A stretch of 64,000 nt of DNA from a virus. The notes under the pieces were generated by a model. It did not search any database, was not told the origin of the DNA, and saw only the letters and a list, made by a program, of their open reading frames with translations. Of this stretch, positions 9,276 through 57,320 are shown piece after piece. The number at the start of each line of letters is the position of its first letter. The first letter of the stretch is position 1. Location: the IMG/VR virus record IMGVR_UViG_3300045988_125296. One strand, written 5' to 3'. The position numbers were made by a program, and so were the translations under genes.

Positions 9276-9947
9276 ATGGCGTTGGACAAAACAAAAACAA
9301 ATCCCTATCTTGGATGTGCGGTGCATGAGAACCTAATTAAAATAGGTGTTGAGTCTCCTATGGTAGAAACTAAACTTTCAAAATACGAGGAACGACTTGT
9401 TACCATTACTCGAAATGTAAGCGAAATTATGGTGGCTCTTGGTCTTGACTTGAAAGATGATAGTCTTTGCGAGACCCCAAGAAGAATCGCTAAAATGTAT
9501 CTTAATGAGATTTTTTGGGGGCTTGACTACAATAATTTTCCCAAGATTACCACTATCGAAAATAAGATGCAATATGATAACGTATTGCTCGAACGACATA
9601 TAAAGGTTAATTCCACTTGTGAGCATCATTTTATCCCTATGATGGGAGAGGCTTTTATTGCTTATCTCCCTGATAAGAAAGTTATAGGTCTTTCTAAGAT
9701 TAACCGTATTGTGGAGTTTTTCTCTCGAAGACCACAAGTTCAAGAAAGGCTCACTGAACAGATATTTCATACTCTTTGTATGCTTTTAGAAACGGACAAC
9801 GTTGCGGTTCTTATTAAAGCTGAGCATACTTGTGTGAAACTTCGTGGAGTTGAAGATACAAACTCGGATACTATAACTTCTCGTTTAGGCGGAATCTTTT
9901 TTAATTCTCCTTCAAGAAACGAATTTTACCAGTCAATTAGACTATGA
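9276..9947 (+). CDS. folE: GTP cyclohydrolase I
   Basis: STCEHHFIPMMGEAFIAYLP...VIGLSKINRIVEFFSRRPQVQERLTEQI...KAEHTCVKLRGV matches the FolE active-site and signature blocks. ATG at 9276. Confidence 0.9.
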   Translation: MALDKTKTNPYLGCAVHENLIKIGVESPMVETKLSKYEERLVTITRNVSEIMVALGLDLKDDSLCETPRRIAKMYLNEIFWGLDYNNFPKITTIENKMQYDNVLLERHIKVNSTCEHHFIPMMGEAFIAYLPDKKVIGLSKINRIVEFFSRRPQVQERLTEQIFHTLCMLLETDNVAVLIKAEHTCVKLRGVEDTNSDTITSRLGGIFFNSPSRNEFYQSIRL

Positions 9948-10522
9948 AGAAATCCTATACAACGGTTAACAAGATAAATATAGATAACAGGCTCTTTACA
10001 GCTAAATTTTGTTGCGACTATGAGAAATGTAAAGGCGCTTGTTGTTATCAACCTCTCTCAGATACTGAACTTAACGGAGGTCAACTATCGGATTACGAAG
10101 CAGCTGACATTCTGTTTTATAGGAAACAACTCTCTTCTTTATGTGAGGAAGAATGTCAACAAATGGCACTTGAACAGCCTGTTAGTAAAGACGGTGATAC
10201 GTTTTATACCACCTTACAAAAAGAAAGATGTGTATTTTGTGATTTGAAAAAAGGAATTTGTGTTCTTAAAATAGCGAAAAAAAGTATATCCAGTATAGAT
10301 ATTCCATTAAGCTGTCAGCTATACCCTCTTATTTGGAGTGCCTTTCCAAGTTATGAGCAATTACAGATAGGCGATATATATGATGAGTATTGTGTACATG
10401 GTTACGAGAAAGGAGAGCGAGAGAATATTTTTATGCTTGACTTTTTAAGACCTCCTTTGGTTCGTGCTTTTGGAGAAAATTTTTTCCTTAAATTAAAAAG
10501 ACTTCAAAAGAAGTTTCTATAA
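9944..10522 (+). CDS. Cys-rich protein (DUF3109/YkgJ-like metal-cluster motif)
   Basis: ATGA overlap with folE. N-terminal FCCDYEKCKGACCYQPL. Further Cys pairs (CEEEC, CVFCDLKKGICV). Confidence 0.6.
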   Translation: MKKSYTTVNKINIDNRLFTAKFCCDYEKCKGACCYQPLSDTELNGGQLSDYEAADILFYRKQLSSLCEEECQQMALEQPVSKDGDTFYTTLQKERCVFCDLKKGICVLKIAKKSISSIDIPLSCQLYPLIWSAFPSYEQLQIGDIYDEYCVHGYEKGERENIFMLDFLRPPLVRAFGENFFLKLKRLQKKFL

Positions 10523-10546
10523 TTCCTCCATACATTTAATAACATT

Positions 10547-10579
10547 ACTCCCAGCATTTTGTTGGGAGTTTTATTTTTC
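10547..10579 (+). terminator. Rho-independent terminator
   Basis: ACTCCCA(10547-10553)...TGGGAGT(10563-10569) followed by TTTATTTTT. Confidence 0.55.
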
Positions 10580-10585
10580 ATAGAT

Positions 10586-10909
10586 ATGAACTACGATAAA
10601 GTAAGAGACCAATGGTTTTCCACACCTCCTTTTAAATTTGGAGTTTCGTTTTTGGGCAAGATTTATCCTAATAAGATTCCTGCGGGCACAGTGATGACGT
10701 TCTATTATAAAGAACGTCCTTATATAATGTTTCAGACTTTATTGGATATTTCTTGTTCTATCGAAAATAGAAGCCTCGTTTATTATGAACCGGGTTCTAT
10801 TGTCTTTTTAGGTGCTCCCTCACGTGTTTTACCAACACTCAGATTTGCCAACTGTCGCATGCCTACTCTTGAAGAATATGTTCGTTATATGGAATCTTTT
10901 ACAGTCTGA
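10586..10909 (+). CDS. hypothetical protein
   Basis: The track start 10559 (TTG) lies inside the terminator. First ATG at 10586 (MNYDKV). Confidence 0.6.
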   Translation: MNYDKVRDQWFSTPPFKFGVSFLGKIYPNKIPAGTVMTFYYKERPYIMFQTLLDISCSIENRSLVYYEPGSIVFLGAPSRVLPTLRFANCRMPTLEEYVRYMESFTV

Positions 10910-10927
10910 GGTTTATCATACGGACAA

Positions 10928-10959
10928 TTTGTTGAGTTCAATTTAATTTTATATATTTA
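10928..10959 (+). promoter_or_regulatory. near-consensus Bacteroides-type promoter
   Basis: TTTG(10928-10931)-N20-TATATTTA(10952-10959), 24 nt upstream of the ATG at 10983. Last base A instead of G. Confidence 0.4.
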
Positions 10960-10982
10960 TTATAGTAACTTAGTTTTTAGCT

Positions 10983-11258
10983 ATGCTTGTTGTGATATTT
11001 TTAATCTTATTCGGATTTTACATTTATCTTCTCATAAGGAATAAGAAAGTATACCTTTTTAGAGAATATCTAAGGGTTCGAGCTAATGACGAGATTCATC
11101 GTGTATTGAAAGAAGATATAGATAAATTTGAACCCTTGCTTGAAGAATGGTCTTATGCCTATAAGAGGCATAGCTATTCCAAAATGGTTTTTATTCCCAG
11201 ACCCTTAAAATCCAGCTATTGGTTTACTGAGGAAGAAGTTAAGAAATTTAATCTGTAA
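10983..11258 (+). CDS. hypothetical N-terminally membrane-anchored protein
   Basis: MLVVIFLILFGFYIYLLI hydrophobic N-terminus. 91 aa. Confidence 0.6.
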   Translation: MLVVIFLILFGFYIYLLIRNKKVYLFREYLRVRANDEIHRVLKEDIDKFEPLLEEWSYAYKRHSYSKMVFIPRPLKSSYWFTEEEVKKFNL

Positions 11259-11264
11259 CATCTT

Positions 11265-11396
11265 ATGAAGGAATGGTTGAAGAAATTTCAATGTTCGCAT
11301 GAGTGGGTGATATTACATATCACTCGTTACGAGACTTGTGATAAGCTCCTATTGACATGTAAGAAATGTGGAAAACTTAAAAAGAAAAGAATATGA
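11265..11396 (+). CDS. small Cys-containing protein (possible zinc ribbon)
   Basis: 43 codons read by hand (MKEWLKKFQCSHEW...TCDKLLLTCKKCGKLKKKRI). Below the ORF-track size cutoff. Confidence 0.4.
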   Translation: MKEWLKKFQCSHEWVILHITRYETCDKLLLTCKKCGKLKKKRI

Positions 11397-11572
11397 CAGT
11401 ACAAGAATTGATTGACGAACTTGAAAAAGTGGAAGATAAATCAGCCGAAGTGTTTTATGTACATGATATTTCAGATTATCAACTACATAGAGAAATTATA
11501 GAAAAACCATATTATGTCGAAGATATAGATGGGACCAATCCAGAAATTTGGTTAATTACAAATGGAGATTAA
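11393..11572 (+). CDS. hypothetical small acidic protein
   Basis: 59 codons read by hand. ATGA overlap with the previous stop. Confidence 0.45.
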   Translation: MTVQELIDELEKVEDKSAEVFYVHDISDYQLHREIIEKPYYVEDIDGTNPEIWLITNGD

Positions 11573-11574
11573 TT

Positions 11575-12306
11575 ATGGAAAGAAAAGTAGGAGAAATATT
11601 TGAGTACAACAGTGAGTGGTATCAATGCATGGAAGGAACAGGATGTTATAGATGTGCCTTTAATTATGATGGGAATACTTGCATTGTTGATAACCCGTAT
11701 TGTATATGTAGAAGCGATAAGAAGAATGTCATTTTCAAGAAACTTGAAAAGGTCGGAGAGCCTTTTGTTTATGAGGATAAAGTGCTTCAAAGATTGAGGT
11801 CTATTGATGGGTACTCATGTGTGCACTGTCTGTTTAAAGAGCAAGCGTGCAATTTTGACTCATGTGATAAAGACTCATTTTTAGTAGAAACCAAATTAAA
11901 ATCAGAAGATATGGAAGAAAAGAAATTGAATCTAAGACCCTTTGACCTTGAAGCAGCCAAAGCTGGTAAGCCAGTATATACTCGTGATGGTAGAAAGGCA
12001 AGGATTATTTCCTTTGATAGACATGGTGAAGATAGCCCCATTATTGCTCTTGTAGTTGATTCAAAAAATGCAGAATGTGAGGAGGTTATTGATTATACCT
12101 TAGACGGAATTTGTAATGAGAATATAATCAATCACAATAAATACGACCTCATGATGCTCTCCCAGAAGAAAGAGGGGTGGATTAATATCTATAAGGATCT
12201 TGATAATACACTTTATTGTGCTTATTTAACTAAGGAAGATGCCTTGAAAAATAGAAGTATAGGAGATGACTATATTACAACTATTAAAATCGAGTGGGAG
12301 GAGTAA
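11575..12306 (+). CDS. hypothetical Cys-rich protein
   Basis: First ATG at 11575 (MERKVGEIFEY). Cys-rich N-terminal half, then KPFDLEAAKAGKPVYTRDGRKARII module. Confidence 0.65.
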   Translation: MERKVGEIFEYNSEWYQCMEGTGCYRCAFNYDGNTCIVDNPYCICRSDKKNVIFKKLEKVGEPFVYEDKVLQRLRSIDGYSCVHCLFKEQACNFDSCDKDSFLVETKLKSEDMEEKKLNLRPFDLEAAKAGKPVYTRDGRKARIISFDRHGEDSPIIALVVDSKNAECEEVIDYTLDGICNENIINHNKYDLMMLSQKKEGWINIYKDLDNTLYCAYLTKEDALKNRSIGDDYITTIKIEWEE

Positions 12307-14556: not shown

Positions 14557-15189
14557 ATGAAGAAGTACATTGGAACAAAACATGTTGAAGCTGAACCGAT
14601 GACAATGGGTGAGGCTTATGAAAGAGGTTTATTGCAAGTCGGCAGAGTGCCCGATGTGGAGTCTGCAAAGCGCATGGGTTATCACGTTAGATATGCTGAC
14701 GGGTACGGGAGTTGGTCTCCGGCTAAACCTTTTGAAGAGGCATACAAGGTGGCTGATACATTCCTTGACCGTCTGCATATTGAGATGCGTCATTTATATG
14801 AGAAGATGGACAAACTCTCTCCATTTATTGAATCTGGCAAAATAGATGAGGTTGTGACTGACAAGTATCAGAACTATCTGCTTCGTTTACAGCATAAGGT
14901 CATGAGTCGGTATATCAATATATTAGAATGTCGTATTGGTAGGCTTGACGGCTCACCAGAAGCTCCCTTGCATCAAATGACATTTGGAGATGCGATAGAA
15001 ATTTTGAAGAATGGTGGTGTTGTCCGCAGAATAAATTGGACTCCACAATGGCGACTTGCCTATGTTCCTTTACGGAAGGACTCCACTATACGATATGTAG
15101 AACTTATCGATACAGATAACGGAACGTCAGAGTTTTGGCATCCTTGTATTGAGGATATGTTTGCTGAGGATTGGGAGATTGTTCTATGA
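14557..15189 (+). CDS. DUF2829 (Thoeris anti-defence Tad2-like) domain protein with N-terminal extension
   Basis: ATG at 14557. The C-terminal MTFGDAIEILKNGGVVRRINW...FWHPCIEDMFAEDWEIV resembles the DUF2829 start (FGeAleaLK.Gk.v.R.gW) and end (DllAeDW.i). Confidence 0.6.
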   Translation: MKKYIGTKHVEAEPMTMGEAYERGLLQVGRVPDVESAKRMGYHVRYADGYGSWSPAKPFEEAYKVADTFLDRLHIEMRHLYEKMDKLSPFIESGKIDEVVTDKYQNYLLRLQHKVMSRYINILECRIGRLDGSPEAPLHQMTFGDAIEILKNGGVVRRINWTPQWRLAYVPLRKDSTIRYVELIDTDNGTSEFWHPCIEDMFAEDWEIVL

Positions 15190-16044: not shown

Positions 16045-16131
16045 AGTAAATTCGAGAGTTGGGGTATTCATTTTCCGTTCCCGAACCGCTTGACAAAATA
16101 GAAATTGTTAAATGGATGTATATCAACGATT

Positions 16132-16800
16132 ATGGATGACAATAAAGAACCAATAGAAGTTCCCTCATTACATGAGGTAATGAATAGAAAAGACGACAAG
16201 GATAAGTTTATTCTTACTCCGCTTTCCTATACAGATGATTATTTGGAACCATTTATTGGTGAGCGTACTGTGAGGTTCCACTATTACAAGCATCTACAAG
16301 CGTATATTGATAATATAAATCGCTTGAAAGGAGATTACTATACAGATTTTACTATCGAGAAACTCCTATTATTCTGTATAGACAGTTACGCAGATTTGTA
16401 TAAGAATGCATCTCAGGTGTTTAATCATTATTTCTACTTCGAGCAGTTAAATACGAGAGGTTCTAAACAGCCGTTGCCTATAATGTGGAGCCTCATTGTA
16501 AAATATTATGGCTCTTGGGATAATCTAAAAGCTCAAATAATTAAGGCCGGTATGAATATATTTGGTTCAGGGTGGGTGTTTCTTACAACTGATAAACAAA
16601 GGGAATGCTTATGGATAAGGTCATTCTCTGGAACAGGAACACCAAAAGGTACGTATGAGATTCCTATTCTTGCTCTTGATGTTTGGGAACATGCTTATTA
16701 TTTGGACTACCAGAACGATAGAAAACTTTACATTGAAAGATTCTTCGAGGCTATTGATTGGTCGGTAGTAGAAAGGAGACTCTGTGAGGTACAGAATTAA
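16132..16800 (+). CDS. Fe/Mn-family superoxide dismutase
   Basis: LSYTDDYLEPFI..RTVRFHYYKHLQAYIDNIN (N-domain) and DVWEHAYYLDYQNDRKLYIERFFEAIDWSVVERR (C-domain metal-ligand block). First in-frame ATG at 16132. Confidence 0.85.
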   Translation: MDDNKEPIEVPSLHEVMNRKDDKDKFILTPLSYTDDYLEPFIGERTVRFHYYKHLQAYIDNINRLKGDYYTDFTIEKLLLFCIDSYADLYKNASQVFNHYFYFEQLNTRGSKQPLPIMWSLIVKYYGSWDNLKAQIIKAGMNIFGSGWVFLTTDKQRECLWIRSFSGTGTPKGTYEIPILALDVWEHAYYLDYQNDRKLYIERFFEAIDWSVVERRLCEVQN

Positions 16801-16826
16801 ATGTGTAAAATTTTAGTATGTGCGGA

Positions 16827-16857
16827 TTTGTGGTTTAAATCAAAATTATTACCTTTG
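16827..16857 (+). promoter_or_regulatory. Bacteroides-type promoter upstream of dps
   Basis: TTTG(16827-16830)-N19-TACCTTTG(16850-16857), 22 nt before the ATG at 16879. Confidence 0.5.
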
Positions 16858-16878
16858 GAGGTGAAAACGTTATAAGCT

Positions 16879-17346
16879 ATGGCAAAAATAAATTCAGAAA
16901 CAGTTATCAAGTTGAAAAGGTTGCTTTCTTCATGGACAGTTTTCTATCAAAAAGCACATACTTATCATTGGGATTTGAAAGGTGAGAATTTTCTGTCTCT
17001 GCATAAGCACTTAGAAAAGTTATACGATGAAAGTGTCGAGCATACAGACGAAATTGCCGAACGATTGCGGCAAATTGGAGAAAAAACTTCTCTCACGTTG
17101 AAAAACGCATCAGAAAATTCCGTAGTAACGGATTCGAATGACGCAGAAACTCCTACTTATGTCGTACAAGATTTAATAGTCGGCATTACTAACTTAACCT
17201 TACTCCAAAATGAGATTTATTTCGAGGCTGACGAGCAAGGTGATTACGTAACTGCGGATTTGATGACCCAGCTAAGCAAATGGTGTGAATTTAATAGCTG
17301 GTTTTTAGCATCCATTGTCGGAGAAGATGCGGAGTCAAATATATAG
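16879..17346 (+). CDS. dps: Dps-family (ferritin-like) DNA protection protein
   Basis: YQKAHTYHWDLKGENFLSLHKHLEKLYDESVEHTDEIAERL matches the Dps ferroxidase signature HW.v.G..F..lH......Y......D.iAER. Confidence 0.85.
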   Translation: MAKINSETVIKLKRLLSSWTVFYQKAHTYHWDLKGENFLSLHKHLEKLYDESVEHTDEIAERLRQIGEKTSLTLKNASENSVVTDSNDAETPTYVVQDLIVGITNLTLLQNEIYFEADEQGDYVTADLMTQLSKWCEFNSWFLASIVGEDAESNI

Positions 17347-17408
17347 AGCACATTTCATAGATATATGCGTTCATAATTTTCTCAAAATTATCTACTATTT
17401 AGGTTGAA

Positions 17409-17446
17409 GGGAAACCGTTCGTGAAGAATAGTTTCCCTATTTTTGT
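17409..17446 (+). terminator. Rho-independent terminator after dps
   Basis: GGGAAAC(17409-17415)...GTTTCCC(17431-17437) followed by TATTTTTGTG. Confidence 0.6.
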
Positions 17447-17455
17447 GTCTAAAAA

Positions 17456-17607
17456 GAGCTGGATTTTCCTAAAAAGCGTAGATTTCTATATTCACCCTCC
17501 ATTTTGGATTTTAAAGCGACCTATTTTTCCTTATTTTCGGAGCTGGAAATTGGTTTTACCGAAAAAGAGCTGGAATTACCATGAATAAAGCCTTCGGAGC
17601 AGGATTT
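17456..17607 (+). repeat. iteron-like direct repeats GAGCTGGAWWT (four copies)
   Basis: GAGCTGGATTT 17456-17466, GAGCTGGAAAT 17540-17550, GAGCTGGAATT 17567-17577, GAGCAGGATTT 17597-17607. Copies 1 and 3 share a longer AAAAAGAGCTGGA. Confidence 0.6.
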
Positions 17608-17840
17608 CACGTATAGGTTAATATATTCAACCGTGAGAAAACGGGGTAAAAATGCGGTTTTACAAATAGTTAGCAAATAACATGCTGTATAGACCTAAGA
17701 AATTGCGGAAATGCGGGTTCAAATAAGAGTATAATATCTATATTATCACTATATATGTATATAGGAGTATGTATTGTATAAGGAAGTGTCGTATGTGTAT
17801 TCATCTTTACTGATGGGTAAGGGCTACATAGACAGGTAGA

Positions 17841-17910
17841 ATAAGCGTAATTAGCGTAGATAGACCTCTAATTAGGTATAATTACGTGTTTTTAGCGTGG
17901 AAATAAGCGT
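17841..17910 (+). repeat. clustered short repeats ATAAGCGT / TAGCGT
   Basis: ATAAGCGT at 17841-17848 and 17903-17910. TAGCGT at 17852-17857 and 17893-17898. Confidence 0.4.
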
Positions 17911-18053
17911 TAGAATAGATTATTATATAAGAAATAACCCATTTTCTTCTTTATATAGCATAAGAAATAAGAATTAGATATGCGGCGAAAATAGTTTATT
18001 GTAATATAGTATATATTACTTATACATATATAGAGGAAAGACACACATAGATT

Positions 18054-18073
18054 ATTGTTATTATAATAACAAT
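18054..18073. promoter_or_regulatory. 20-bp perfect palindrome ATTGTTATTATAATAACAAT
   Basis: Read directly. The two 10-nt halves are exact reverse complements. Confidence 0.7.
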
Positions 18074-18314
18074 TATATTTATTCGGCGTATGGGACGTAT
18101 GATATAGTGTAGATATATTCCTATGGAAGTTATATAGGGCGGGGACGATTGGAAAGGAAAGAATTTTTGGGCGAAATTTAATTTCATAATTTGCCTTATG
18201 GAAGAATAAGAACCCCAAGAGCTGAATTTGGGGGTCCCCTTAAATGGGATTTTTCTACGGCATGGCTTCGGGTAGTCCGTTTTTATAAGAACGTAGGTGG
18301 AGAACCCGTGTTTT

Positions 18315-18332
18315 TTATTGTTATAACAATAA
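18315..18332. promoter_or_regulatory. 18-bp perfect palindrome TTATTGTTATAACAATAA
   Basis: Read directly. Shares the half-site TTATTGTTA / ATTGTTAT with the 18054 palindrome. Confidence 0.7.
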
Positions 18333-18547
18333 CCAAAATGGCCTCCATAGGTGTATTTGGAAATCTCATCTATTTTACTTCGTGGGCACATGCGGGTGAA
18401 TTGGAAAATTCTCTCTTTTTCGTTATCTTTATGACAAGAACCAAACGTTATGCAGCCCGTATATGGGTGAAACGCACTTCGTATAAACGGCGATTTATCC
18501 GTGTCATCGTCTCCATTTAGAGTCTATATGGGCACAAAATGCCCTCT

Positions 18548-18623
18548 TTACAGTTACTTTATTAAAAATAGTTAAAATATACCTATATTTTGGTTATTGT
18601 ATAAGAAATAACTATATTTGTAT
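18548..18623 (+). repeat. copy A of a ~77-bp direct repeat carrying a promoter
   Basis: TTTACAGTTACTTTATTAAAAATAGTTAAAATATACCTATATTTTGGTTATTGTATAAGAAATAACTATATTTGTAT. Identical to 20949-21026 except for a one-base C indel. Confidence 0.85.
18589..18620 (+). promoter_or_regulatory. consensus Bacteroides-type promoter (repeat copy A)
   Basis: TTTG(18589-18592)-N20-TATATTTG(18613-18620), 28 nt before the ATG at 18648. The spacer holds the inverted repeat GTTATT-N8-AATAAC. Confidence 0.6.
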
Positions 18624-18647
18624 ACAGTTCATTAAAACCCCAAAGAT

Positions 18648-19028
18648 ATGACTAAGCTACATGATTTTCAGAGTATCGGCGATGTGCTGGAACCTTTCGA
18701 CCCCAATTACATCAGCGATAAACCGTATGAAATACCGGACATCAGTAAACGGGAGAAGCGATTTTTACGTAAAATCTCTATTTTGGAACATAAACTCCGT
18801 AGGGAGAGAATAAGTTTTGAATGGCTCCCCGATGATGAGATGTTCCGTGTTCACAAATACCGGAAAGGTACGGAATACCCCACGTATATGTATCTGGCTG
18901 TTTACATGGACGAGAACAAATACGCTTTCGGTGGTTACGAAACGGATTTGGTCGTTGACGGCAAAGTGTCGGTGGTGGTGGCTTCTGTAAAGGAATGGTT
19001 GTCTAACAATAAACCGGCGGTGAGATGA
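18648..19028 (+). CDS. hypothetical protein
   Basis: 126-aa ORF. Stop overlaps the next start (ATGA). Confidence 0.65.
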   Translation: MTKLHDFQSIGDVLEPFDPNYISDKPYEIPDISKREKRFLRKISILEHKLRRERISFEWLPDDEMFRVHKYRKGTEYPTYMYLAVYMDENKYAFGGYETDLVVDGKVSVVVASVKEWLSNNKPAVR

Positions 19029-19786
19029 TGACGACTGTACAGATATTCGGCAGGGAATATGGTTTTTGCCGTAGCGCAAAGGCTAACTACGAGGACAAAC
19101 ATAACCGCATGGTGAAACTGGCTTTACGGTTTGAGGAACTCAGCGAAAAATTCGACCGCATGATTGAGAAAGGTAGCTATGTTACCGATACGGCACGATG
19201 TGCGCTTGCTTGCAAGATGATGATGTATACTGGTATCCGGATTGGTAACGAGGGTTCTGCCGAAGGGTATATCACCAAGCCCCACCCCAATTCCAAGAAA
19301 GAACCGGAGTTCGTACAAACATACGGATTGACTACCTTGTTACCGGAACATGTATTGGTAAAGGGTCGCAAAGTGTTTCTTAATTTTATCGGGAAAAAAC
19401 AGGTTGAGAACAGTTTTACCCTTATCGGAGACCTCGCTAAACAAGTAAAGGAGGTTCTGAAAACAGTGGAACAAGGAGAAACACTTTTTGAAATTACGGA
19501 ATACGAACTTACTAAGTTTATTAAAAGATATGTAGGAAGGAGGTTCACTCCGAAGGATTTCCGGACTTTGCGAGCCAATATGTATGCGTGGGAAAAGTTC
19601 ATGGAGATATGCGAAAGGGAACTTCCCAGCACAAAGACCGAGTTTAATAAGGAGGTCAAGGAGATTGCCACTTATGTCAGCGAGCATTTGAACAATACAC
19701 CGGGTGTGTGCAAAGCATCCTATATTGACTCCATGCTATGGGACGAGGTTGCCGAGCAACGTCCAGTAACAAAGAGAAAGAAATAA
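19025..19786 (+). CDS. type IB DNA topoisomerase (poxvirus/bacterial TopIB-like)
   Basis: Catalytic-pentad context in order: GIRIGNEG (Arg), TYGLTTLLPEH, FIGKKQVE (Lys), TPKDFRTLRAN (Arg), NNTPGVCKASYI (Asn/His position and the Tyr nucleophile). Confidence 0.75.
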   Translation: MMTTVQIFGREYGFCRSAKANYEDKHNRMVKLALRFEELSEKFDRMIEKGSYVTDTARCALACKMMMYTGIRIGNEGSAEGYITKPHPNSKKEPEFVQTYGLTTLLPEHVLVKGRKVFLNFIGKKQVENSFTLIGDLAKQVKEVLKTVEQGETLFEITEYELTKFIKRYVGRRFTPKDFRTLRANMYAWEKFMEICERELPSTKTEFNKEVKEIATYVSEHLNNTPGVCKASYIDSMLWDEVAEQRPVTKRKK

Positions 19787-20948: not shown

Positions 20949-21026
20949 TTTACAGTTACTTTATTAAAAATAGTTAAAATATACCCTATATTTTGGTTAT
21001 TGTATAAGAAATAACTATATTTGTAT
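20949..21026 (+). repeat. copy B of the ~77-bp direct repeat carrying a promoter
   Basis: Same sequence as 18548-18623 with one extra C (ATATACCCTATATT). Confidence 0.85.
20992..21023 (+). promoter_or_regulatory. consensus Bacteroides-type promoter (repeat copy B)
   Basis: TTTG(20992-20995)-N20-TATATTTG(21016-21023), upstream of the ATG at 21089. Confidence 0.6.
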
Positions 21027-27272: not shown

Positions 27273-27803
27273 ATGAATACTGTAACAAGAATTTTCGAGT
27301 TTGATGCAGCTCACAGAGTTATGCACGAAAAGGTGAAGTGTTTTAATCTTCACGGCCACCGTTTTAAGATTGAAGCTACTTTTGAATATGATTCTAAGGG
27401 TGCGCTTGGATACGCAATCGACTTTAAGGAGATAAAACGTATTGTTGGTGCTTGGATTGATGAGAAATTAGACCACGCTTGTATTTTAAATCCGTATGAT
27501 GAGCAGTTAATAATGCTATGCCGAAATTATGAATGGCGTTTATACATTATGGGTATGGGAACTTACGGAGATATAAATCCGTCTGCCGAAAATTTAGCCT
27601 CTGAATTATTCTATACGATAAGGCAACTTTTTATCAAAGATTCGTTAGGAGTAACTCTCTCGAAGTTACGTTTGTATGAGACACCTAATTGTTGGGTTGA
27701 AACCAATGGATTCGATTATGTAGCGTCTGATGGTTACCTTAAAGATTTATCGAAGTGGAGGAGTGAAAAAGGGGAATTTAATTATGATATAAGAAATGAA
27801 TAA
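27273..27803 (+). CDS. queD: 6-carboxytetrahydropterin synthase / PTPS family
   Basis: FEFDAAHRV...KCFNLHGHRFKIEATFE...GYAIDFKEIKRIV...LDHACILN contains the CxxxHGH catalytic/zinc motif of the QueD/PTPS fold. Confidence 0.8.
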   Translation: MNTVTRIFEFDAAHRVMHEKVKCFNLHGHRFKIEATFEYDSKGALGYAIDFKEIKRIVGAWIDEKLDHACILNPYDEQLIMLCRNYEWRLYIMGMGTYGDINPSAENLASELFYTIRQLFIKDSLGVTLSKLRLYETPNCWVETNGFDYVASDGYLKDLSKWRSEKGEFNYDIRNE

Positions 27804-27805
27804 CT

Positions 27806-29461
27806 ATGCCAGTTAGGAAAAAAATTATTCCAAAAGAGGAAGGGTATGTTTTTCCGTCTACTGGGAAAAAATTTACCGAGGAGGAGGTAACCTCTGCTTT
27901 TGAGGGTAAATCTGTATCTTTTGATGCACACGATATTACCTCTAAGATAATCGAGTTTGGGAAGATTCTAACAGGTATCTCCCTTTACAGTTACCAGATA
28001 GAAGCTGTTTATGCGATTATCTATTCAGTAATAACGTTTTCGGGTGACGTTAAGACTCTATTGTTTAGTAGACAATCAGGGAAGTCTGAGGCAATAGCCT
28101 TTGTTATTGATACGCTTTGTGTATTGTTACCGTCACTTGGAAAAATCATTCCCGACTTGGAGCAGTTCAGTATGGGTTTCCGTGTTGGTTTGTTTGCCCC
28201 TCAATCGGACCAAGTTCAGACTACTTATTCTCGTGCGATGACAAGAATAAATTCCGCAAATGCGGAAATGGTATTGGCAGACCCAGATATTGATGTCTAT
28301 CTTGAAAGTACGGCAAGACTTGAATTAAGTAATGGCTCATACCTTGCAGGACAAGTAGCGAGTAAACAATCTAAGATTGAGTCAAAGACATACGACCTCG
28401 TTATTGTTGAGGAGGCACAAGATGTGGACGACCTTATCGTGAGTAAGTCTATCGAGCCTATGCTTTCTTCTACGGCTGGTACTTTAATTAAAGTGGGTAC
28501 TACGGGTATGTATAAGAATCATTTTTGGTATGAGATTCAACATAATAGACAAATTGACCGTAAGATAAAAGACTCACGTATTAGGAATCATTTTGAGTTT
28601 GACTATAAGCGTATTATAAGAGATAGACGTGAGCAGTATGAAAAGGACGGTAAACGTTTCCACTTAAATTATGAGGCTGATATTCTTCGTAAAAAAGCTC
28701 GTTGGGGTGAAGATTCTCAGGCGTTTAAGTTATCATACGCTTTGATTTGGGATTTAGAGAGTGGTATGCTTCTTACGGATAAGGAATACAACTCCATTAT
28801 AAATCGTAAATTAGGTTTTCAGTCTCCGTCAACTACTGATGTTGTAATAGCCGGATTGGACATTGGTAAATCTCCTGCTGAGACGGTATTGACAATCGGG
28901 AAAAAGTTTTACCTTGATGATTCTTTTGATAGACCCTATAAACAAATTCTTGCTTGGGTGGCTCTTGGTGGATTGGACTATGAGGCCCAACATCATATAA
29001 TCTTGGATTGTATTGTGGAATTTAATATTTCTGTTATATTTGCGGATTATACGGGTGTCGGTAAAGCTGTTGTCGATAGGCTTATGTATGCGTGCGGAGA
29101 ATATGTCGATATTGTTCCTTATACGTTTACTCCACAGAGTAAATCGGATATGTGGTTTAACTTTGTCTCGGATATTCAGACAAGGCACTTAATTGTTCCG
29201 GCTAATCCAAAAGTTCGGGCTACCACAGAGTACATGAAATTTGAAGAACAGATGAAGAATTGCCAGAAGTATTTTAACGGGGCTTACATGGTATGTGAGA
29301 AATCTGATGGATATTTTGACGACTTTGTAGATAGTTGCGCTCTTATGAGTATGGCTGCTAATGAGGAGCAAAGAGTTGATGAAGAAATGGAAGTTTCTCA
29401 AAATTCTCTTTACAGTGGAGTTACTGATACTATAAACGCAATTAGAAGAAATTCTTATTAG
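27806..29461 (+). CDS. terL: terminase large subunit
   Basis: Walker A-like LFSRQSGKSEA, Walker B YDLVIVEEAQD, C-terminal RNaseH-like nuclease Asp blocks (VIAGLDIG, FADYTGVG). Sits immediately upstream of the portal gene. Confidence 0.85.
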   Translation: MPVRKKIIPKEEGYVFPSTGKKFTEEEVTSAFEGKSVSFDAHDITSKIIEFGKILTGISLYSYQIEAVYAIIYSVITFSGDVKTLLFSRQSGKSEAIAFVIDTLCVLLPSLGKIIPDLEQFSMGFRVGLFAPQSDQVQTTYSRAMTRINSANAEMVLADPDIDVYLESTARLELSNGSYLAGQVASKQSKIESKTYDLVIVEEAQDVDDLIVSKSIEPMLSSTAGTLIKVGTTGMYKNHFWYEIQHNRQIDRKIKDSRIRNHFEFDYKRIIRDRREQYEKDGKRFHLNYEADILRKKARWGEDSQAFKLSYALIWDLESGMLLTDKEYNSIINRKLGFQSPSTTDVVIAGLDIGKSPAETVLTIGKKFYLDDSFDRPYKQILAWVALGGLDYEAQHHIILDCIVEFNISVIFADYTGVGKAVVDRLMYACGEYVDIVPYTFTPQSKSDMWFNFVSDIQTRHLIVPANPKVRATTEYMKFEEQMKNCQKYFNGAYMVCEKSDGYFDDFVDSCALMSMAANEEQRVDEEMEVSQNSLYSGVTDTINAIRRNSY

Positions 29462-54743: not shown

Positions 54744-57320
54744 ATGGAAGTAGGTAGTAACCTTGTGGCAACAGAGTCTGAACTACGACATTTAGGTATA
54801 GATATTTCCACCTTAGAAAAAAATCTTACTTTACCGAATCCTGAATATGTAAATAAGAAAAGATTTGGCAAGGGTAAGATTTATGGACATATTGAACCTT
54901 ATATTTGTTATTTAAAGAAAGTAGGTTCATCTTATATTGTTCCTCGATATTACATAGGAGAACTTGGTAAGTATGGGAATGAAGGTAGAGACGTAAAGAT
55001 TCATTTTAAGTTCAAACTTCGGGATTATCAACAAAAATTTTGGGACGATAATTCTTCTGCCTTTGAAGAAAGCACAGGTATTTTACTTGAAGCTGCTTGT
55101 GGTACGGGTAAGTGTCATGGAAAAGGAACTCCCATTCTTATGTACGATGGGTCTGTTAAGAATGTAGAGGACATTCGTGTTGGGGATTTACTTATGGGTG
55201 ATGATAGTACACCTCGTAGGGTTCTTTCTCTTGCAAGGGGTCATGAGGAGATGTTTGTCGTGCATCAGAAAAAAGGCATTGATTATACTGTAAATAGGTC
55301 TCACATATTATCATTGCAATATAGGCCATGGGGATTTGGTAATAAAGAGCAGCATAGGAAGGATGCTCATAATGCCTCTCAGTATGGAGAAGTAAGGGAT
55401 ATTTGCATCGAGGATTATTTGAAACTTTCTAAGACTCAGAAATCATATCTTTACGGATATTGTGTTCCAGTTGAATATTCTAATAGGGAAGTTCAGATTC
55501 CTCCTTATTTTCTTGGTGCATGGCTTGGCGATGGAACTTCTCGTGTGCCACACATTACAACAGACCGCAGAGATAGGGTTTTGGTTCACTATTATCGTGA
55601 AATTGCGGGTATGTTTAATTGTAATCTTGAACTTGTTAGGCAGGAGGGTAATAATTCCAATGTATATAAGTTTGTTGGTAAGGAGATTGAAAAAGGAAGA
55701 CATAAGAACCCTCTTTTAGATGCTTTGAGATTTTATAATCTAATTCAGAATAAGCATATCCCGGATGATTATCTTATCAATTCAAGGGAAAATCGCTTGC
55801 AGCTTCTTGCAGGATTACTTGATACTGATGGAAGTTATAGTACGGGTTGCTTTGATTTTATTCAGAAACGAAAAGACCTTGCTTTGCAGGTTCGTAAGCT
55901 GTGTTGGTCATTGGGTTTTCGTGTAAAATTGACTAAGAAAATTATTAAGGGTCAATCTTACTGGAGATTGTCTATAAGTGGCGATTTTAGTGAATTACCC
56001 ACTAAATTGGGTAGAAAAGTTCCACTTAGAAGGCGCATAAATAAAGACTCAAGGGTTAATGGAATATCTGTTGAAAGTATTGGAGAAGGAGATTACTACG
56101 GTTTTACTCTTGATGGAAATCATAGGTACTGCCTTGCAGATGGCACAGTTACACATAATACTATTATGGCCATTTATTTTTCGATGATTCGAGGTAAACA
56201 GACAATGGTATTGGTTCCCACTTATTATTTGGCCAAGCAATGGAAACAACGTATTGAAGAGTCAACAGATTCTACTTGTATAATTGTTTCCTCTAAGGAT
56301 ACCGAAATTCGTGTGGATAGTGACTTTACAATAATTGTTTTGGATTTATTTACGTGTAGAAAACTTCCTGCTGAACTTATACATAATGTAGGCCACGTTA
56401 TTCTTGACGAGGCTCATCGTGTTGGTGCTGAGATGTATCTTCCTATTCTTGACGAAGTACCTGCCATTTATCGGACTGCTCTTACGGCTACATTTCGAAG
56501 AACGGATGGAGTTCATAAGATACTTAAATACCACTTTGGAGAGTGTATTCAGATGAAGAGTCATTTTCCACGGCCTCTTGTTTATAGTGTAAAGACTAAT
56601 GTACAAATAAGGAGTATCTTATCGAAAAATAAGAAGTACGAACATTTTGTAGACTTCTTGGATAGGAACAATGTTCCTTATTCTGAGACTAAAAGTGCCA
56701 TAGAGTTTCCATCTCTTGATTTAAGAGATGTTGCAGAAAAAGAATATAAAAAGGGGGTTCTTACAAAAACTGCTTTTCATGAAATAGCTTCATGTCTTAA
56801 ACGAAGTTCTGAGATGCCTTATTCAGTCGTTGACTCGTATTTGAATGAACATTCTGGACGTAGAAAGATTGCTATTCGTGTTATTCAAGAATGTTTGGAC
56901 TCAGGTAGAAACATTCTTTTCCTCTCAAAGCGAAAATCTACCTTGAAGGACTTACACAAGTATTTTGCAGCATATAAGCCTATGCTCATCGTTTCTGAGA
57001 CAAATTCACGGTCTCCCGAAGATGAGGATTACTTGCAGAATACTTGCCCCCTTATTTTTGGTATCTCACAATTAGCTAAGGAAGGTCTTGATATTGATAG
57101 GTTAGATACCCTTATTATTCATTTACCTATGAAAGATACCGAACAAGCTATTGGACGTATAAATCGTCTCTACGAGGGTAAGAAATTTCCTGTTTGTTTA
57201 TATCTTTTGGATAATTGCCCTATTACGTTTGCCGTTTTTAGAAATGCCCAAAAATTTATCTCCATCAATGCCGATTATAAAGGTGAACGGACTCTTTTAA
57301 CTTTAAAATCTGCCTTATAG
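54744..57320 (+). CDS. SF2 (DEAH) DNA helicase interrupted by an intein
   Basis: LRDYQ, split Walker A GTGK/T, ILDEAH, LTATFRR, QAIGRINR. Confidence 0.85.
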   Translation: MEVGSNLVATESELRHLGIDISTLEKNLTLPNPEYVNKKRFGKGKIYGHIEPYICYLKKVGSSYIVPRYYIGELGKYGNEGRDVKIHFKFKLRDYQQKFWDDNSSAFEESTGILLEAACGTGKCHGKGTPILMYDGSVKNVEDIRVGDLLMGDDSTPRRVLSLARGHEEMFVVHQKKGIDYTVNRSHILSLQYRPWGFGNKEQHRKDAHNASQYGEVRDICIEDYLKLSKTQKSYLYGYCVPVEYSNREVQIPPYFLGAWLGDGTSRVPHITTDRRDRVLVHYYREIAGMFNCNLELVRQEGNNSNVYKFVGKEIEKGRHKNPLLDALRFYNLIQNKHIPDDYLINSRENRLQLLAGLLDTDGSYSTGCFDFIQKRKDLALQVRKLCWSLGFRVKLTKKIIKGQSYWRLSISGDFSELPTKLGRKVPLRRRINKDSRVNGISVESIGEGDYYGFTLDGNHRYCLADGTVTHNTIMAIYFSMIRGKQTMVLVPTYYLAKQWKQRIEESTDSTCIIVSSKDTEIRVDSDFTIIVLDLFTCRKLPAELIHNVGHVILDEAHRVGAEMYLPILDEVPAIYRTALTATFRRTDGVHKILKYHFGECIQMKSHFPRPLVYSVKTNVQIRSILSKNKKYEHFVDFLDRNNVPYSETKSAIEFPSLDLRDVAEKEYKKGVLTKTAFHEIASCLKRSSEMPYSVVDSYLNEHSGRRKIAIRVIQECLDSGRNILFLSKRKSTLKDLHKYFAAYKPMLIVSETNSRSPEDEDYLQNTCPLIFGISQLAKEGLDIDRLDTLIIHLPMKDTEQAIGRINRLYEGKKFPVCLYLLDNCPITFAVFRNAQKFISINADYKGERTLLTLKSAL
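55113..56159 (+). mobile_element. intein with LAGLIDADG homing-endonuclease domain (349 codons)
   Basis: Begins with Cys (TGT 55113-55115: CHGKGTPILMYDG) and ends THN (AAT 56157-56159), followed by Thr. Block B TVNRSH. LAGLIDADG motifs LGAWLGDGTS and LLAGLLDTDGS. Excision restores GTGKT. Confidence 0.8.

Follow-up and report, generated by a model that had tools for sequence, protein, structure and literature searches.

Results

A non-coding gap at the seam of a one-directional phage genome

We analysed a 64 kb stretch of viral DNA (IMGVR_UViG_3300045988_125296, hereafter the window), which is part of the one-directional, ~85 kb genome of a Bacteroides phage, and within it the gap at positions 17347-18647, which is the largest between credible genes (the next largest is ~360 nucleotides, nt). 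The window has a guanine-plus-cytosine (GC) content of 36%, and its called open reading frames (ORFs) lie almost all on the + strand. Left of the gap are genes for a ligase, GTP cyclohydrolase I, a crAss001_48/Tad2-like protein, superoxide dismutase and Dps, in that order; to the right, small genes and a type IB topoisomerase (TopIB) are followed by QueD, the terminase large subunit, portal and capsid, and then by two helicase genes. An earlier reading, made from the letters and a list of ORFs (the sequence-only reading), had singled out this gap as a gene-free hub: a candidate origin, packaging site or non-coding RNA locus. Comparison with relatives gathered from IMG/VR, ENA metagenomes and GenBank (cited below by locus numbers such as L004) strongly supports a functional, non-coding hub, real, conserved and apparently acting in cis at the level of DNA: the gap keeps its position in every lineage, one element in it (unit A) outlasts the neighbouring proteins, and the module to which that element belongs recurs in integrative islands of bacteria.

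Among isolates, Bacteroides phage BS162P1 (OP172706.1, 88.9 kb), whose host is B. salyersiae, comes closest, its portal protein being ~80% identical. In its complete record 145 of 146 coding sequences lie on one strand, and the gap at the seam, 2.05 kb long, is the largest non-coding stretch of the genome. An ORF-free gap of 1.3-2.5 kb is found directly upstream of the p126 operon in all relatives, though the genes upstream differ, and the version in the window is the most compact. It lies between the last and the first transcription units, with an intrinsic terminator (T1) on its left and the promoter of the first operon on its right. That operon begins with p126 (18648-19028, + strand), a gene of unassigned function which has homologues in all lineages tested and for which profile searches of Pfam, PHROGs and the PDB gave no match. 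A megablast search of the gap region against deposited phages likewise returned nothing.

All lineages have the same order of parts: the terminator, short repeats, a repeat-containing segment that we call block C, a TATA-rich stretch with a GGGTAAGGG box, arrays of TAATTAG and ACGGCG type, unit A and the promoter. In most lineages a weaker version of unit A (unit X, a second copy) and a GT-rich tract come after it.

Unit A is the most constant element of the gap

Unit A (18219-18340, + strand) is a single-copy element composed of an AGCTGAA box (18220), a run of C followed by TTAAAT (18236-18245), a variable spacer of 24 nt (18246-18269) and a GGGTAGT box (18270-18276), with TAAGAA and CCCGTG boxes and an 18-nt palindrome (18315-18332) completing it. 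An anchored alignment of 16 copies shows the C-run with TTAAAT, exactly 24 variable nt and GGGTAGT, with the semi-conserved boxes and the palindrome after them. The identical geometry appears in L044 and L045, two loci that were found independently, through a p126 protein only 30-33% identical to that of the window. By BLAST footprinting unit A is detected in seven of eight divergent lineages, compared with three of eight for Dps and five of eight for p126. Its profile finds one copy in the 64 kb of the window and one or two in each relative, always on the + strand and exclusively in gaps. Within the close clade of the window it has accumulated 1.6 substitutions per 100 nt, as against 6.5 for the whole gap and 14-20 for the fast segments.

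Since unit A has no coding frame, no RNA covariation and no upstream promoter (see below), it is best read as a DNA site recognised by protein. Its boxes lie at ~0, 30, 51 and 73 nt, which by our reading places them roughly whole helical turns apart. We considered the GC-rich dyad GGGGTACCC as a symmetric cleavage site and rejected it, as it is not conserved in L023, L029 and L031.

The gene for TopIB is genuine and lies two genes downstream (19025-19786, + strand; Pfam PF01028; PDB 2f4q/2h7f). It encodes a compact protein of 253 amino acids with an active-site motif of the SKxxY type (CKASY), which among PDB structures matches Deinococcus TopIB best and poxvirus TopIB next. The pentamer CCCTT is the cleavage site of poxvirus-type and bacterial type IB topoisomerases, and it is present in nine of ten copies of unit A (at 18237-18241 in the window; CCGTT in L005) but in only one of six aligned copies of unit X, the other five having CCATT. 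No TopIB gene was seen beside unit A in L010/L013 and in MT835482, nor do the islands described below carry one. We therefore keep unit A as a possible target of TopIB as a testable aside only.

The left half of the gap: terminator, repeats and an AT-rich core

The last operon, which ends with dps, had been described as terminated, and this is borne out by T1 (17408-17446, + strand), a strong intrinsic terminator made of a stem at 17408-17438 and a run of T (-15.7 kcal/mol, z -3.7). T1 is invariant in the close clade of the window; its equivalents in L004, L005 and BS162P1, each a hairpin with a T-run, have different stem sequences in which the pairing is kept.

The repeats that follow (17456-17577, + strand) consist of three exact copies of GAGCTGGAWWT, at 17456, 17540 and 17567. 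The fourth copy of the sequence-only reading, at 17597-17607, is degenerate (GAGCAGGATTT, one mismatch). With the looser GAGCTGRAWWT there are five exact matches in the 64 kb, four of them within the gap (17456, 17540, 17567 and 18219). In close relatives the GAGCTGGAWWT cores are invariant while adjacent bases vary, and the copy at 17597 decays further. The spacing of the GAGCTGGA repeats is irregular (84, 27 and 30 nt) and their sequence is not conserved in distant lineages.

Block C (17611-17725, + strand) has the core GAGAAAACGGGGTAAAAATGCGGTTTTA (17635-17662) and further (A)TGCGG boxes at 17704 and 17712, and is found in three to five of the eight divergent lineages. The clustering of TGCGG that had been noted before is real, with five occurrences in the gap against 1.0 expected, and the clusters of ATAAGCGT, TAGCGT and ATTGTATAAG proved to be enriched there too, as is TAATTAG.

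The AT-rich core (17721-18189) contains a TATA-rich stretch, TGATGGGTAAGGG (17810-17822), TAATTAG and TAGCGT sites (17841-17910) and a perfect palindrome of 20 nt (18054-18073). Its GC content of 28.6% is in the bottom 0.5% of windows and is more unusual than that of the adjoining GC-richer segment to which attention had first been drawn; the latter is above average, but mildly so (41.3% GC, top 8% of windows). The two perfect palindromes reported earlier, at 18054-18073 and 18315-18332, exceed all others in the window in length and have the same GTTAT|ATAAC arms. A GGGTAAG block is present in L004, L005, L023, L044, L053 and BS162P1. Across the gaps of seven lineages TAATTAG is enriched 39-fold and words of the TATATTA type ~10-fold. 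The number of TAATTAG copies ranges from 2 in the window to 9 in BS162P1 and 12 in L029, and in certain lineages TAATTAG/AATTAGA has been heavily amplified (L045:4100-4990, with over 25 copies by eye, and also L029:1900-2900 and L018:5400-5800), a lineage-specific expansion of a putative protein-binding array. The fast-evolving sub-segments of the gap are 17826-17915 and 18448-18546.

The right half of the gap: unit B, spacer and a duplicated promoter module

Unit B (18341-18447, + strand; GTATTTGGAAAT...TTTTACTTCGTG...ATGCGGGTGAATTGGAAAAT...GTTATCTTTATGACAAGAAC) can be aligned with L004, L005 and L023. Unit X, the second core copy present in this region of most relatives, is missing from the window. 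The spacer that follows (18448-18546) evolves fast (the close clade shows 14 substitutions per 100 nt) and aligns in none of the eight divergent lineages; it contains a weak, non-conserved hairpin at 18530-18544. This hairpin and that at 18213-18233 had been given as examples of local structure, an impression that did not survive comparison with shuffled sequences (z -1.3 and -0.9, respectively), and the hairpin at 18530 is already gone in a relative of 95% identity (L002).

The promoter expected at the right edge is indeed a full one of Bacteroidota type, TTTG-N20-TATATTTG at 18589-18620. The promoter module of the first operon (18547-18623, + strand) comprises the -33 element TTTG (18589-18592), the dyad GTTAT-N10-ATAAC (18593-18612), a putative operator, and the -7 element TATATTTG (18613-18620), a layout conserved in the lineages read. 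A second copy of the module (20949-21026, + strand; 78 nt, 98.7% identical to 18547-18623) heads the next operon, with its promoter at 20992, and such a copy is also found in L002, L004, L005, L026 and L031. Promoters in the window follow the Bacteroidota pattern TTTG-N19-21-TAnnTTTG (12 matches, 4.4 expected), while a scan with the sigma-70 consensus gave 11 sites with 10.8 expected, that consensus being uninformative for a Bacteroidota host. In seven gaps the right-end promoter is the only full promoter at a conserved place. The module itself has 13 substitutions per 100 nt in the close clade. Its repetition causes contig breaks in several assemblies (L001, L021 and L023).

The gap codes for neither protein nor a detectable structured RNA

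The absence of a credible gene from the gap was confirmed: the ORFs that it contains have no Pfam or PHROGs match and none is conserved. The listed ORFs had been said to start at weak codons, but one ORF in the gap, on the minus strand at 18020-18391, starts with ATG. Matches found by tblastx between the gaps of relatives contain stop codons. A small minus-strand gene over unit A (the 'PFKGTP' frame) was considered and dismissed, since its stops differ by lineage, it has no conserved start and the AGCTGAA box shifts the frame. The only credible ORF in any gap encodes 102 amino acids (MDELNKLLSRLPEKL...) and is inserted between unit B and the promoter at L004:5138-5446, and also in L024. We do not regard it as an ancestral gap gene, because it is lineage-specific and has left no remnant in the window or in other lineages; the pseudogene explanation, which called for an intact gene at this place in relatives, has no other ORF to draw on. 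That the gap is a decayed gene or neutral junk DNA might be argued from its several spurious ORFs, the fast evolution of the two sub-segments named above and the small ORF of L004/L024. However, no ORF is conserved and stops fall at differing places, while the conservation of unit A and block C reaches further than that of the flanking proteins and extends to unrelated elements, so that the conservation data effectively refute this explanation.

It is also very improbable that the segment 18190-18545 specifies a non-coding RNA, as one long or several small transcripts. In favour of such a locus one can cite conserved sequence with no coding potential, the fixed orientation of the elements and a weak hairpin with a T-tract at 18530-18549. 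However, no Rfam family matched the window or 17 related loci, and RNAalifold gave ~-3 kcal/mol for unit A with no compensatory pairs on either strand. A hairpin around the GGGTAGT box was discarded because its native arms pair no better than arms combined across lineages (p 0.47) and single folds are heterogeneous. The same approach easily detected a positive control, a leader RNA of the islands with 43 pairs, 17 of them compensatory, among eight sequences. No -33/-7 promoter occurs between the terminator and the right-end promoter in the window, and in seven lineages none has a conserved position ahead of unit A; a strong terminator stands just upstream. The suggestion of an RNA locus thus found no support.

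The module recurs in integrase islands of Bacteroidota

We scanned bacterial genomes, one per species, for the pattern CCCTTAAATG-N23-GGGTAGT and examined 8 kb at each locus. There were 12 matches, ten of them in Bacteroidota, and nine are clear homologues with similarity beyond the pattern; the three others (Aliikangiella, Pirellula and Cytophagales) were set aside as chance matches. The carriers, from gut and environment, include a Bacteroidales metagenome-assembled genome, Odoribacter, Parabacteroides, Prevotella and Dysgonomonas, among them Parabacteroides sp. PH5-46 and Dysgonomonas sp. 511. In eight of the nine loci an integrase and/or a small HTH_17 or Zn-ribbon gene is just upstream of the module. 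The module is directly downstream of an integrase (Arm-DNA-bind_5/SAM_5/Phage_integrase) in six loci, and the gene directly upstream of it is a small HTH_17 gene in five and a Zn-ribbon gene in two. The Odoribacter island, L053, has a 28-nt block C core identical to that of the window and keeps the whole order of parts. In BLAST alignments block C is recovered from L049, L053 and L055, the last of which also matches over the terminator region. The cargo downstream is heterogeneous (DUF4352, a methylase, a PDDEXK-like nuclease, an FtsK-gamma protein) and none of it is phage-structural. No homologue of any of the 129 ORFs of the window and no PHROG structural match was found in the island loci, and no tRNA or att site was found beside the islands within these 8 kb. 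A blastn search for the module on plasmids (PLSDB) and in other deposited phages gave no match, and a 7.25 kb viral contig with a block C 21-mer (L062) was discarded as a satellite, the match being a chance one inside an ORF at 55.6% GC.

The islands have a structured leader RNA of ~150 nt, placed after the promoter downstream of unit A and ahead of the first cargo gene. It has three nested helices comprising the 43 pairs given above (-27.6 kcal/mol), matches no Rfam family and is absent from the window. It is located at L054:4165-4360, L049:4200-4385, L053:5905-6085, L048:6396-6581(-), L050:2469-2680(-), L052:820-1030(-) and L055:1570-1781, and is a candidate for a new cis-regulatory RNA.

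A long non-coding module held in common by elements that have no proteins in common is as expected for a cis site that is recognised in trans. It is possible, though on balance we doubt it, that this module of ~0.8 kb (block C, AT-rich core and unit A) is a trans-recognised propagation signal that was captured by small integrative islands of a previously undescribed kind, consisting of an integrase, a small HTH_17 or Zn-ribbon gene, the module, the structured leader RNA and variable cargo. The literature that we searched on Bacteroides satellites describes no such system for Bacteroidota.

Other features of the genomes

The window encodes a DnaB-like helicase and an intein-containing helicase; the latter, of superfamily 2 (ResIII/DEAD; 54744-57320), carries an intein with Hint and LAGLIDADG domains. 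The terminase large subunit is an undivided gene of 1.66 kb in the window (27806-29461), whereas in BS162P1 (9334-12057) and MT835482 (11123-13837) it matches as two pieces over ~2.7 kb, which suggests an intein or intron insertion in these relatives. The accessory genes (14557-15189, 16105-17346, 9276-9947 and 27273-27803) encode a crAss001_48/Tad2-like (anti-Thoeris) fusion, an Fe/Mn superoxide dismutase, Dps, GTP cyclohydrolase I and a QueD-like enzyme, and the last two suggest 7-deazaguanine modification of the DNA. BS162P1 has a single other long non-coding stretch (16102-17243, 1.1 kb), probably an intron, with an I-HmuI homing endonuclease after it.

Discussion

Our favoured interpretation, to which we assign a probability of about 40%, is that the gap is a terminal-repeat and packaging-recognition region combined with the control of early promoters. 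The last operon ends at the intrinsic terminator, and beyond it there is a stretch of ~1.1 kb, ORF-free and apparently promoter-less, with arrays of short repeats that are putative protein-binding sites, the AT-rich core and unit A. The genome would have its ends within this stretch, in the form of a direct terminal repeat that is short and exact, and unit A would be where the packaging machinery (small and large terminase subunits) recognises concatemeric DNA. A host-type promoter, its consensus conserved and repeated 2.4 kb downstream, would then start the first operons, perhaps regulated through its dyad. The presence of the module in islands that share no visible phage protein suggests that it is recognised in trans, and the islands may borrow it for their propagation by phages of this family. 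The AT-rich left half might additionally serve as an origin.

The terminase large subunit groups with Bacillus phage BCD7 and BRock-like phages of Streptomyces at 31-33% identity, and the best characterised matches are those of BRock and Alone3, at that level of identity over ~90% of the protein; the portal is related as well. Alone3 has an exact repeat of 197 bp at the two ends of its record, which we verified, and its end region is ORF-free over ~0.8 kb and has short repeat arrays. BRock has a terminal repeat of 221 bp with sharp margins in read coverage (PMC7453282). At this moderate distance the terminase of the window would fall into a clade whose members package DNA with terminal repeats that are short and exact. 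If the phage packages as BRock and Alone3 do, the repeat must sit in the non-coding DNA of the seam, that is, in the gap.

The BS162P1 record is labelled partial and linear, but its ends (88848-88902 and 1-55) overlap by 55 nt, the cut being inside the gap. This overlap is a signature of circular assembly, for which reason we do not use the record to establish where the DNA physically ends; the assembly is probably circular and complete, and one that closes on itself speaks against cos ends, as does the poor conservation of the GC dyad. The MT835482 record also starts inside the gap, but we do not count it as a terminally repeated genome, as it lacks a repeat and its opposite end lies in coding sequence. 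We found nothing in the literature on the termini of BS162P1.

Several observations weigh against a packaging function. Unlike the two records just discussed, the long metagenomic contigs of the family neither start nor end in the gap, and break instead at the duplicated promoter module; this is expected for collapsed repeats, yet lends no positive support. The 55-nt overlap in BS162P1 is a k-mer artefact, and the cut in the gap could be due to chance (~2.3%) or caused by a repeat. The assignment of the terminase draws on 31-33% identity, 9 kb separate its gene from the gap, and the small subunit was not found. At ~0.8 kb the module is larger than classical pac or cos sites, and its left half, with repeats and an AT-rich stretch, looks like an origin. 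What we say of the extent and encapsidation of the islands derives from the 8 kb seen per locus.

Replication offers another explanation, one that we consider unlikely although far from negligible. Block C, the TGCGG boxes and the GAGCTGGA repeats would be iterons bound by an initiator, the stretch of 28.6% GC the unwinding element and unit A an extra site for an initiator or loader; the islands would carry the same origin so that replication proteins of the phage or of the host copy them once excised. The clustered direct repeats do adjoin the most AT-rich 470 nt of the window, with three exact GAGCTGGAWWT copies and TGCGG boxes beside it, if at irregular spacing. The order from block C to unit A and their distance of ~515-600 nt are kept between phage and islands, suggesting one integrated machine, no replication gene was seen in the 8 kb of each island locus, and in most lineages a G-rich, C-poor tract follows unit A. 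On the other hand, a GC-skew analysis, the check proposed for an origin, gave no extremum at the gap: across the complete genome of BS162P1 the detrended cumulative skew has its minimum at ~41 kb, within the replication module. The genes for helicase, DnaB and polymerase are 36-57 kb away, the repeats lack both regular spacing and conservation in other lineages, the module is absent from PLSDB plasmids, and unit A, single-copy and asymmetric, is unlike an iteron. The sequence-only reading had left origin and packaging site side by side; the terminase clade, the position at the seam and the lack of a skew signal make us lean towards the terminus, but the two are not separated. They are also mutually compatible, as the left half could be the origin and unit A the packaging site. 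We find it harder still to credit that the gap serves transcription alone, as an insulator and an array of operators (GTTAT..ATAAC dyads, TAATTAG, TGCGG) that sets the activity of the early promoter, with unit A as an upstream activator or repressor site copied by the islands to time the expression of cargo to infection. This would accommodate the GTTAT..ATAAC dyad, which is found in the promoter spacer, at the ends of units and in both long palindromes, the duplication of the promoter module in the lineages examined and the position of unit A, co-oriented with the next gene and ~240-850 nt (mostly 330-600) upstream of it in phages and islands alike. However, unit A is ~350 nt from the promoter in the window and ~800 nt in L004, and it is nearly frozen whereas the promoter module evolves fast. 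Moreover, ~1 kb of conserved architecture far exceeds the needs of known phage operator regions, and the extreme AT-rich core and the seam position would be left unexplained.

The human gut is rich in large lytic Bacteroides phages, of which, to our knowledge, essentially no genome ends, packaging signals or origins have been mapped. The module is the obvious place to look for all three, with 18236-18276 in unit A as the precise target. If unit A is a packaging signal, it could be used for transducing vectors for Bacteroidales and for orienting and closing metagenomic phage genomes. Were the islands to use the module as proposed, they would be phage satellites that hitch-hike on ~85 kb Bacteroides phages while encoding no recognisable replication or packaging protein, and the first lead to hitch-hikers of this type in Bacteroidota, with consequences for gene flow in the gut microbiome (defence and surface-protein cargo).

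Comparison with known systems

The left half of the gap resembles origins composed of iterons and an AT-rich stretch (lambda ori, P1 oriR, P4 ori/crr and iteron plasmids) in that clustered short direct repeats lie by an AT-rich stretch in non-coding DNA. Unlike those origins, it has repeats that are few, irregular and lineage-specific, no adjacent initiator gene and no skew signal, and the best-conserved element of the gap is single-copy and asymmetric.

The likeness to BRock and Alone3 consists in the terminase, the related portal and, in Alone3, ends that lie in an ORF-free, repeat-rich region, with repeats of 221 bp and 197 bp in the two phages. However, their Streptomyces hosts belong to another phylum, their end regions have no sequence in common with the gap and their genomes are not one-directional; in the Bacteroides phages the termini are putative.

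In phages of the T7 type, a short exact terminal repeat is flanked by arrays of short repeats, after which come early promoters used by the host RNA polymerase. There is no sequence similarity to the window, in which the terminal repeat is a putative one, the motifs (C-run-TTAAAT-N24-GGGTAGT, TAATTAG, TGCGG) are unrelated and the promoters are of Bacteroidota type. The arrangement is nevertheless alike: in a one-directional genome, a single ORF-free stretch of ~1.3 kb separates the last gene from the first, and in it a conserved core is surrounded by arrays of short repeats, with strong host-type early promoters at the right edge.

Lastly, the islands can be compared with satellites that use cis sites of a helper (P2/P4 cos, phage-inducible chromosomal islands (PICIs) that carry cos, and the minimalist PICMI). 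The DNA common to phage and islands is a composite module of ~0.8 kb, in contrast to a cos site of ~50-200 bp, and no genes for replication or capsid remodelling were seen in the Bacteroidota islands, which are possible satellites. As in those systems, however, elements with an integrase and a small HTH_17 (AlpA/Xis-like) or Zn-ribbon gene carry a non-coding site of a phage with which they have no proteins in common, and satellites that carry the packaging site of their helper are a known precedent for such a shared cis site.

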